The notes beneath the pieces are model-generated. The model was not told the DNA's origin. It was given only the letters and a program-made list of their open reading frames with translations, and ran no database searches. From assembly GCA_963835065.1 (NCBI GenBank), contig CAWIEK010000046.1, positions 119,219-183,218 on the forward strand: a DNA stretch of 64,000 nucleotides. The letters are read 5' to 3'. Shown here piece after piece: positions 7,672 to 9,127 of the stretch (its first letter is position 1; every line of letters begins with the position of its first letter). Position numbers and translations under genes: made by a program. The stretch is from an uncultured Chthonomonadaceae bacterium. GTDB lineage: Bacteria > Armatimonadota > Chthonomonadetes > Chthonomonadales > Chthonomonadaceae.

Positions 7672-7992
7672 ATGCCACCCCTCGGACGACAGGACAAGGT
7701 TCGCATTCGCTTGCGCGCCTTTGACCACCGCATCCTGGATCAGTCGGCAGAAAAGATCGTGGATACCGCCAAGCGCACGGGAGCGCGCGTGGCCGGACCC
7801 GTTCTCCTGCCAACCGACAAGGTGATTATCTGCGTGAACCGCAGCACGACCATTGACAAAGAAAGCATGGAGCATTTCGAGCAGCGGACGCACAAGCGCC
7901 TGATTGACATTCTCGAACCCGGCCCCAAAACCATTGACGCGCTGATGCGCCTCGACCTGCCCAGCGGCGTTGACATTGAAATCAAGCTGTAA
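7672..7992 (+). CDS. rpsJ: 30S ribosomal protein S10
   Basis: [35 protein letters not shown]; start ATG 7672 after GAGG. Confidence 0.98.
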
Positions 7993-8004
7993 GGCAAAAT
8001 ACGC

Positions 8005-8406
8005 ATGGAACTCTGGCAGCAATGGTTTGCAATGGCGATTGAATCCAATAATGCGGCAGAAAATGCGCAAAGCGCCCAACATTGGCGTTCCAGCGTAAGC
8101 CGGTACTATTATTCAGCGTATCAGGCTGTTTCGGCTGTGTTGATTTATCGCGGACTGACGCCGCCACCAGAGGAAGAAGCCTGGGGACATGCTTCCACGC
8201 CGGACATGCTTGTGGAGCATTTCGGAACCTACATTCGCAGCAAGGATGTCAGGCAACGCTACGCAAATCAACTGCGGGAGTTGTACGCCTGGCGGATCAA
8301 AGCGGATTATCGTGGAAACGAGCAACTCCGAGCAAGCATCGGCGTTGTTCGTAAAAATGCCAACAGGTTGGTAGAAATGGCAGAGGGCATACTGCCGGAG
8401 GTATAG
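8005..8406 (+). CDS. HEPN domain protein (putative RNase toxin)
   Basis: [10 protein letters not shown] (SRAYYAxF-type motif) and C-terminal R-X4-Y motif RIKADY; 133 aa. Confidence 0.85.
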
Positions 8407-8408
8407 CG

Positions 8409-8648
8409 ATGTACGAAGATATTCGGAATTGGCTATGCACAGAAGCGCAACAACGCAACATCCAGGCTGTTTTTCACATGGATCGCGTTGAAACGCACAA
8501 CGGTTGGATTAAGTTGCCTGTTCGCATTGAGGGCGAGGATTTAGACACCGGTGATCGCGTAGAAATAATGTCGGAATTGGAAGACTCTTGGAATGACCGG
8601 GAGCCAGCGCCTGAACCTCGACTCCATTTGTCACTGACGAAGAGGTAA
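8409..8648 (+). CDS. Small acidic HEPN-partner protein (family X, copy 2), putative antitoxin
   Basis: Starts 2 nt after the HEPN stop; motif LEDSWNDREP shared with neighbours. Confidence 0.75.
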   Translation: MYEDIRNWLCTEAQQRNIQAVFHMDRVETHNGWIKLPVRIEGEDLDTGDRVEIMSELEDSWNDREPAPEPRLHLSLTKR

Positions 8649-8668
8649 CAAATAGAACTTGTTGCTTA

Positions 8669-8974
8669 ATGGAAGTTGCCTTGGCTGATTTGTTGGAGAA
8701 ACCAATTGGTTTGGATTTCGAAGCGTTTCATGCCTGGCTGCAGCAAGAGGCAAAGACGCGAAACATTCAGGCTTATTTCGCTATTCGCTCGGCGAAGATG
8801 CTTGAGGATGGCTACCTTAAATTGCCGACTTACATCGGCAATCCGGGGACTGCCTATGAACAGGTGGTTTTGATGGGAGACCTCGAAGACGCGTGGAACG
8901 ATCAGGAACCAAAGCCTGAGTTTAAGTTGCATCTCTACCCGATGGGCAAGCCCCACGAGTGGAGCGGCGAGTAG
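8669..8974 (+). CDS. Family X protein, copy 3 (orphan)
   Basis: WLQQEAKTRNIQA..GYLKLP..LEDAWNDQEPKP aligns with copy 2. Confidence 0.75.
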   Translation: MEVALADLLEKPIGLDFEAFHAWLQQEAKTRNIQAYFAIRSAKMLEDGYLKLPTYIGNPGTAYEQVVLMGDLEDAWNDQEPKPEFKLHLYPMGKPHEWSGE

Positions 8975-9001
8975 AACGACACAAGTGTGCCTGTAACCAC
9001 C

Positions 9002-9123
9002 GCGTCTTGAAGCAGTTGGCGGCATTGACATCGAAATCAAGCTGTAGGCGAAATCCGCATGGCATCGTGGCAGCAATGGCTGAATATGGCGATTAAGTCG
9101 CAGATATTCTGCCTCAAGGGTAA
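9002..9123 (+). pseudogene. Duplicated rpsJ 3' end followed by an internally deleted HEPN gene
   Basis: GGCATTGACATCGAAATCAAGCTGTAG (GIDIEIKL*) mirrors the rpsJ end; MASWQQWLNMAIKS is joined to ILPQG* (HEPN start and end). Confidence 0.8.
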
Positions 9124-9127
9124 AATC

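Follow-up and report, generated by a model that had tools for sequence, protein, structure and literature searches.

A strain-variable stack of HEPN and partner genes between rpsJ and rplC in a Chthonomonadaceae genome and its possible growth by recombination at a flanking core gene

Introduction

Arrays of orphan immunity genes are known from the type VI secretion systems (T6SS) of Vibrio cholerae, and their proposed source is homology-facilitated illegitimate recombination (Kirchberger et al. 2017, PMC5361080). In HEPN-MNT dyads, the MNT gene is almost always located 5' of the HEPN gene; AF0298-type HEPN-T proteins conserve motif R without motif H, and have an alternative upstream H and a conserved C-terminal Y (Anantharaman et al. 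2013, PMC3710099). Hotspots of gene turnover that lack mobile elements and are renewed by recombination at flanking core genes have also been described (Oliveira et al. 2017, PMC5635113).

The locus described here lies in the str/S10 cluster (fusA, rpsJ, rplC) of the Chthonomonadaceae genome G000; the window, which is the whole stretch of DNA that was analysed, has a length of 64,000 nucleotides. The rpsJ-rplC gap contains three copies of a partner gene, X (X2, X3, and X4), and two HEPN genes, one of which has an internal deletion. This cassette stack is real, recent, and variable among strains. The explanation that we favour, with confidence that is about evenly balanced, is that the stack grew by the uptake of foreign HEPN-X cassettes through integrase-free recombination, homologous at one flanking core gene and illegitimate at the other end, followed by an ordinary microhomology deletion of a toxin gene.

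Organisation of the rpsJ-rplC Interval

The order of elements in the gap is HEPN1, X2, X3, a remnant block, and X4. The features of the locus, all on the forward strand, are as follows.

6765..7105, +, HEPN pseudogene with a frameshift, same family, upstream of rpsJ (the profile matches two frames, E 1e-18 and 6e-14)
7209..7454, +, X5, partner copy that is broken in the window and intact in the sister genome G002
7672..7992, +, rpsJ (uS10), upstream anchor gene (PF00338, E 1.4e-32)
8005..8406, +, HEPN1, intact AF0298-like HEPN-T protein of 133 aa, predicted toxin (PF05168, E 1.7e-8; 2hsb, E 0.09)
8409..8648, +, X2, partner of HEPN1, 79 aa, without a Pfam family, alpha-beta-beta-alpha-beta fold in the model
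8649..8668, +, spacer resembling the rplC leader behind X4 (12/20 nt alike)
8669..8974 (start at 8669 or 8681), +, X3, orphan partner, probable resident copy also found in G002 (84-86% aa identity)
8983..9366, +, strain-variable block of 384 bp: filler, rpsJ stub, deleted HEPN4, and X4
8983..9018, +, filler of 36 nt
9019..9047, +, stub, a duplicated rpsJ 3' end (25/27 nt identical)
9059..9124, +, HEPN4 remnant, the first 14-15 codons fused to the last 7 codons
9099..9104, +, 6-nt microhomology at the HEPN4 deletion joint
9128..9367, +, X4, intact orphan partner
9380..10009, +, rplC (uL3), downstream anchor gene (TIGR03625, E 1.3e-78)

The spacer at 8649..8668 is possibly, on slight resemblance, the trailing flank of an incoming cassette or, alternatively, a decayed HEPN end. 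A source of the 36-nt filler was looked for across the genome, and no clear one was found (best other match E 0.14).

Several other features of the surroundings can be noted. The tuf gene is usual between fusA and rpsJ; the window has a decayed EF-Tu domain 2-3 gene in this place instead (5625-7671; PF03143 match at about 6577-6687), which is an open 198-aa ORF in G002 (L015:6530-8630) and is followed by the HEPN pseudogene and X5. An intact tuf is on contig C63. Genomes G001, G015, and G023 also have no tuf between fusA and rpsJ, and all of them carry a HEPN-X cassette. Behind fusA, there is an unclassified 104-aa ORF, X0 (5740-6054; dN/dS 0.08 against G002), preceded in G002 (L015:6737-7498) by a 148-aa ORF that is absent from the window. 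The latter looks HEPN-like by eye and matched nothing in the searches; the two ORFs are possibly another two-gene pair, the first gene of which was lost in the window. Long intergenic hairpins of inverted tandem 7-8-nt repeats are located at 2240-2361, 2851-2978, 7565-7654, 11985-12091, 13334-13452, and 14712-14835, and the type at 7565-7654 recurs on dozens of contigs. The rplB gene is apparently frameshifted (ORF 11125-12018 leaves the homology, and the rest is in 11576-11986), possibly due to a sequencing error.

HEPN and X Proteins

The HEPN1 protein passes the PF05168 threshold (35.1 bits against a cut-off of 22) and matches the PADLOC model HEPN_IX (E 5e-7). Residues H62, R97, and Y102 do not vary among 38 homologues, which corresponds to the AF0298-type pattern: a conserved R, no motif H, an upstream H, and a C-terminal Y. 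HEPN1 is predicted to be a toxic RNase restrained by X through binding.

The GS and DxD motifs are characteristic of nucleotidyltransferases. They do not occur in the conserved columns of X, which are only W61, E58, P66, and L74, and a Pfam search over 48 X members found neither a shared family nor a nucleotidyltransferase family. A PDB sequence search with X gave no meaningful match, and the matches in a protein atlas were all under 0.9 and unnamed. The structural model of X (pLDDT 91) is a small alpha-beta-beta-alpha-beta domain. Its nearest structures are the CzrB C-terminal domain (Z 8.7, rmsd 2.2, 72 aligned) and KH-II-like domains (Z 6-7); the best Foldseek E-value is 0.07, and no MNT fold is present among the best 50 rows of the fold comparison. 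Such an arrangement, as modelled, is common and indicates no function. At every locus mapped, X is located 3' of HEPN. Since X, unlike the partner in MNT dyads, lacks a nucleotidyltransferase motif and follows HEPN, neutralisation by binding is its likely predicted mode of action.

Duplicated rpsJ End and Deletion in HEPN4

The original prediction, made from the sequence alone, described a repeat at 9002-9100 of the last ~14 codons of rpsJ, the spacer, and the first 14 HEPN codons, followed by a jump to the HEPN end and an intact X4. The translations RLEAVGGIDIEIKL, MASWQQWLNMAIKS and ADILPQG read as it described. About nine codons of the rpsJ end are firmly duplicated, from 9019 on (7964-7990 against 9019-9045, 25/27 nt identical), whereas the first five putative stub codons (9003-9018) share only 6/16 nt with rpsJ, which is the chance level (p about 0.25). 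The spacer and the first 14 HEPN codons do recur (7992-8045 against 9046-9099, 41/54 nt identical), and the X2 and X4 regions match at 165/259 nt. The local score of the repeat is 88, while the highest of 2000 shuffles is 30. Behind the joint to the HEPN end, the X4 frame is open and shares 57% identity with X2.

The loss of the toxin gene with its partner retained is confirmed; however, it had been called precise. The deletion does not keep the HEPN end in frame, and the 6-nt direct repeat seen at 9099-9104 borders it, so "microhomology deletion" is a better description. The HEPN start codon at 9059 was left in frame with X4. Both independent HEPN deletions (9059-9367 in the window and L015:8964-9054 in G002) keep the old HEPN start and the partner in one reading frame, interrupted by one stop in G002; the chance of this is 1 in 9. 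The retained start might preserve translational coupling to rpsJ.

Variation Among Strains

Contigs from 4 of the 24 public sequencing runs (X1-X4) were compared with the window; the other runs (X5-X24) have a share of 0.10 or less. A 716-nt contig of run X3 spans 8747-9104 and continues for 158 nt more, the first 30 letters of which read as a HEPN continuation. The second contig of this run matches 9099-9276; ahead of this match, 10 more letters lengthen the HEPN C-terminus. The two contigs overlap exactly at the 6 nt 9099-9104 and diverge there into HEPN-like sequence. The third one departs from the window at 8026, the same point where G002 departs, suggesting a haplotype without HEPN1-X2. 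This run-X3 haplotype consists of three unjoined contigs from a metagenome with a depth of 4-6; they indicate that HEPN4 is probably still undeleted in a close strain and that the deletion in the window removed roughly 330 nt between short direct repeats.

In run X1, a contig matches the window over 7923-8982, with 39 differences, and continues at 9367. Thus, it has the arrangement rpsJ-HEPN1-X2-X3-rplC, with the same X3-rplC joint as in G002. The sister genome G002 lacks HEPN1-X2 and has a different internal HEPN deletion of its own in front of X3 (rpsJ-deletedHEPN-X3-rplC); the run-X3 contigs contain X3-stub-HEPN4 with HEPN continuing. Together with the window, this makes four arrangements, so cassette number and order do vary among close strains, a check that had been proposed with the original prediction.

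Misassembly of the junction had been named as something that would refute the prediction. The genome is a 71-contig assembly, and no run spans the whole stretch. However, the cassette copies are only 64-76% identical, and an independent contig, that of run X3 spanning 8747-9104, bridges the X3-stub joint and carries the same junction with HEPN continuing. The 384-bp block is missing from G002 and from the run-X1 strain. Misassembly is therefore rejected, its probability being negligible, and the junction is real.

Ancestry and Order of the X Copies

When comparing X3 with its G002 copy, the dS value (0.43) is inside the range of the neighbouring genes (0.24-0.53), and therefore X3 appears to be an inherited resident; its dN/dS of 0.18 may partly reflect the time before its HEPN was lost. 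In the X tree, X2 and X4 are sisters (98/96), yet their synonymous sites are saturated (pS 0.79). Because the X4 block is polymorphic within one species while X2 and X4 diverged deeply, a foreign origin is indicated. One clade of the six X copies of the genus was rejected (p-AU 9e-6), as was the pairing of the HEPNs of the two g20-genus genomes (p 0.005), whereas a clade of X2, X3, X4, and the G002 X3 (p-AU 0.29) and the grouping of HEPN1 with the HEPN of the congener G001 (p 0.08) were not; these tests took in 22 of the 51 X rows and 17 of the 41 HEPN rows, with short alignments. The X5 orthologue in G002 groups with the rpsJ-rplC cassette of another genus (100/96). The proposed phylogeny of the X copies thus separates the six copies and leaves old within-genus paralogy compatible with the last two tests.

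Such paralogy would result from old tandem duplications of the rpsJ-end-HEPN-X unit within the genus followed by differential deletion, without any foreign DNA. The sister relation of X2 and X4, the unrejected four-copy clade, and the head-to-tail orientation of the repeat unit agree with this history. However, X3 sits between the sister copies, the saturation of X2/X4 synonymous sites is at odds with an rpsJ stub that is 93% identical, the identical joints in G002 and run X1 require one deletion spread across species, and X5 groups outside the genus. We consider the duplication history improbable.

According to the original prediction, new cassettes enter at the rpsJ 3' end and push older copies downstream. 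In this conveyor, each cassette arrives together with a gene end, the stub represents the host end that was displaced, X4 would be the most ancient copy, and G002 and the run-X1 strain either lost the downstream block or took a donor haplotype whole. The position of HEPN1-X2 upstream of the orphan X3 fits displacement, and this part of the prediction is supported: HEPN1-X2 looks like an insertion at the rpsJ end that displaced the HEPN of X3 and moved X3 downstream. The conveyor order is not supported for HEPN4-X4, which is likely a downstream addition. Nor is X4 supported as the oldest copy, given that X3 is the vertically shared one, that G002 and the conspecific run-X1 strain have one X3-rplC joint in common, and that HEPN4 is apparently undeleted in a close strain, whereas the HEPN of X3 is gone or deleted. 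In addition, the stub has barely decayed: no difference between the window and run X3 is listed over 8956-9104. The hybrid joint is formally symmetric, and since donor and recipient cannot be told apart by the joint alone, the conveyor retains some weight, although it is unlikely.

The middle copy, X3, is likely the inherited resident, to which HEPN1-X2 was likely added upstream and HEPN4-X4 likely downstream. Under the recombination model that we favour, HEPN1-X2 would have entered anchored on rpsJ and the HEPN start, replacing the HEPN of X3, and the stub-HEPN4-X4 block would have entered from the rplC side. The rpsJ stub would be a leftover flank at the illegitimate joint of two rpsJ-HEPN-X-rplC haplotypes, and HEPN4 would later have been lost through slippage or repair involving short repeats. 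Homologous recombination at a core gene on one side accounts for stubs, mixed ancestry, and orphan partners and needs no new chemistry. Also in its favour are the rejected clades, the interleaving of occupied and empty rpsJ-rplC sites, the recurrence of the pair at other core genes, the lack of a tyrosine recombinase on the contig, the comEC family gene, and the HEPN-first decay. Against it speak the thin run-X3 haplotype, the two unrejected groupings, the ftsA stubs with the polarity of the conveyor, the slow movement at the ftsZ site, the DprA family not found in the genome, the broken X5, and the HEPN breaks of some relatives, which may be assembly errors.

Distribution and Mobility of the Cassettes

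A homologue search with a single protein gave 2 matches, and a profile search gave 17. X2 was matched in 9 of 61 genomes, always adjoining rpsJ, and the X profile has matches in 34 of 401 genomes of the phylum. In 27 genomes of the family, the rpsJ-rplC gap is occupied by HEPN-X in 12 cases and empty in 15; both states interleave on a quick rpsJ+rplC tree, the deep support of which is weak, and genera g5 and g12 contain both. Elsewhere in Armatimonadota, the pair is located in the ftsA-ftsZ and iscS-iscU gaps and in front of mnmG and nuoG (anchor gene names at the ftsZ, iscS, mnmG, and nuoG sites were checked on one locus each). The 30 loci of the ftsZ site comprise 16 occupied (all in one genus, which also has 2 empty ones), 10 empty, and 4 uninformative loci. 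Since the ftsZ-site cassettes form one clade in one genus, they are largely inherited vertically, and movement is slow.

Variants of the family were also encountered. In the metagenome locus L106, rpsJ and rplC group with a neighbouring family and the cassette occupies the same site; the X profile matched none of the 21 genomes of that family. On G000 contigs C27, C48, and C2 (L019, L020, and L021), there are three further, more distant HEPN-T genes, and behind each of them lies a small ORF similar to X in size and appearance. At iscS-iscU, X is found as a tandem fusion of two domains (L107:3420-4016), and in G025 and L115 it contains an internal insertion; L156 was noted alongside these variants.

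The suggested link of a host-gene 3' stub with the cassette recurs at ftsA, where a stub is present downstream of the cassette in L103 (3850-4157, score 96, near-identical) and L061 (1084-1330, score 48; shuffled maxima 30-32). Behind both comes an ordinary spacer with roughly the length of an empty site, as a conveyor would leave. Stubs were found in 1 of 14 rpsJ intervals (the window alone), 2 of 16 ftsZ-site intervals, and none of 7 iscS intervals.

A duplicated 3' end is the usual mark of site-specific integration. Its presence at two different host genes could thus point to a recombinase acting in trans that integrates a circular cassette into an att site at the 3' end of a gene. The rarity of stubs argues against this mechanism, even though some may have decayed, and the targets are unrelated, without an evident common motif. 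The genome has 6 matches to the tyrosine recombinase family PF00589, none of them on the contig of this locus, and the absence of an integrase there together with the rare stubs speaks against att-type integration. The viral contigs searched contain only 2 distant HEPN matches, without X, and the plasmids searched contain none; no carrier of the cassette was found in these sets. Insertion by such a recombinase is very unlikely. A comEC family gene is present in the genome; the DprA family was not found in this 92%-complete assembly.

Decay of the HEPN and X Genes

Among 51 loci, both genes are intact in 39, HEPN alone is broken in 8 (one at a contig start), both are scored broken in 4 (including one cut by a contig end and one with an insertion in X), and X alone is broken in none. 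In the 27 anchor-found loci (11 rpsJ relatives and 16 ftsZ), 19 are intact, HEPN only is broken in 7, both genes in 1, and X only in none. The expectation that toxins are lost while partners persist is thus borne out; the 7:0 asymmetry has a length-weighted p of 0.03 and is weakened by kinship and possible assembly errors in relatives. If X holds a toxic HEPN, as predicted, only the toxin can go first, and orphan X genes accumulate. HEPN-first decay is expected of any toxin-antitoxin pair and by itself does not demonstrate selection for immunity. The broken X5 in the window indicates that orphan partners do decay. In four close pairs, dN/dS is 0.11-0.24 for both HEPN and X.

A broader idea, which we regard as doubtful, is that HEPN-T and X form an integrase-free addiction cassette spreading in Armatimonadota via the anchors rpsJ/rplC, ftsA/ftsZ, iscS/iscU, and mnmG. 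Orphan X genes would then be an antidote memory that blunts incoming cassettes, i.e., an immunity array against a DNA-inherited toxin.

Comparison with Known Systems

A literature search, at the level of listed records, found no description of a HEPN-X cassette system. With HEPN-T/MNT dyads (PMC3710099), the cassette shares an AF0298-type HEPN and a small, tightly coupled partner; it differs in that X shows neither an MNT match nor a catalytic motif, is located 3' of HEPN, and resembles KH-II/CDF C-terminal domains in its model. Variable cargo between two core genes without a mobility gene is also found in turnover hotspots (PMC5635113), but here a single, specific two-gene family makes up the cargo, recurs at several core-operon sites of the phylum, and leaves stubs of host genes behind. 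Integrative elements with duplication of the target 3' end have the duplicated gene end in common with this locus, whereas the cassette has no integrase, is about 0.7 kb in size, and rarely leaves stubs.

The closest likeness is to polymorphic-toxin immunity arrays, as had been suggested; it extends only to the architecture and the probable mechanism and not to secretion, because HEPN1 is a 133-aa solo domain among ribosomal genes with no secretion or delivery domain fused or linked. The divergent orphan partners form a strain-variable array of separate origins, with within-genus paralogy of X2, X3, and X4 compatible with the tests. As in the Vibrio T6SS arrays (PMC5361080), a new two-gene module anchored upstream displaces the old toxin while the old partner stays, and heterogeneous arrays of orphan partners arise with no integrase. 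Unlike there, essential housekeeping genes serve as the anchors, a delivery system for the toxin is lacking, one addition was apparently made downstream, and one toxin was not removed at insertion but later, by a microhomology deletion.

Since close strains capture each step (block gain, host-gene stub, and microhomology toxin loss), the locus is directly testable, and its natural matched and mismatched HEPN-X pairs provide material on AF0298-type HEPN-T toxicity and its neutralisation by a putative non-enzymatic partner. The array-building process is already known; the unexpected place and the unclassified partner family are new here. A mechanism proposed for the immunity arrays of secreted toxins thus finds a probable counterpart in the most conserved operon of the cell, with a non-secreted predicted toxin.
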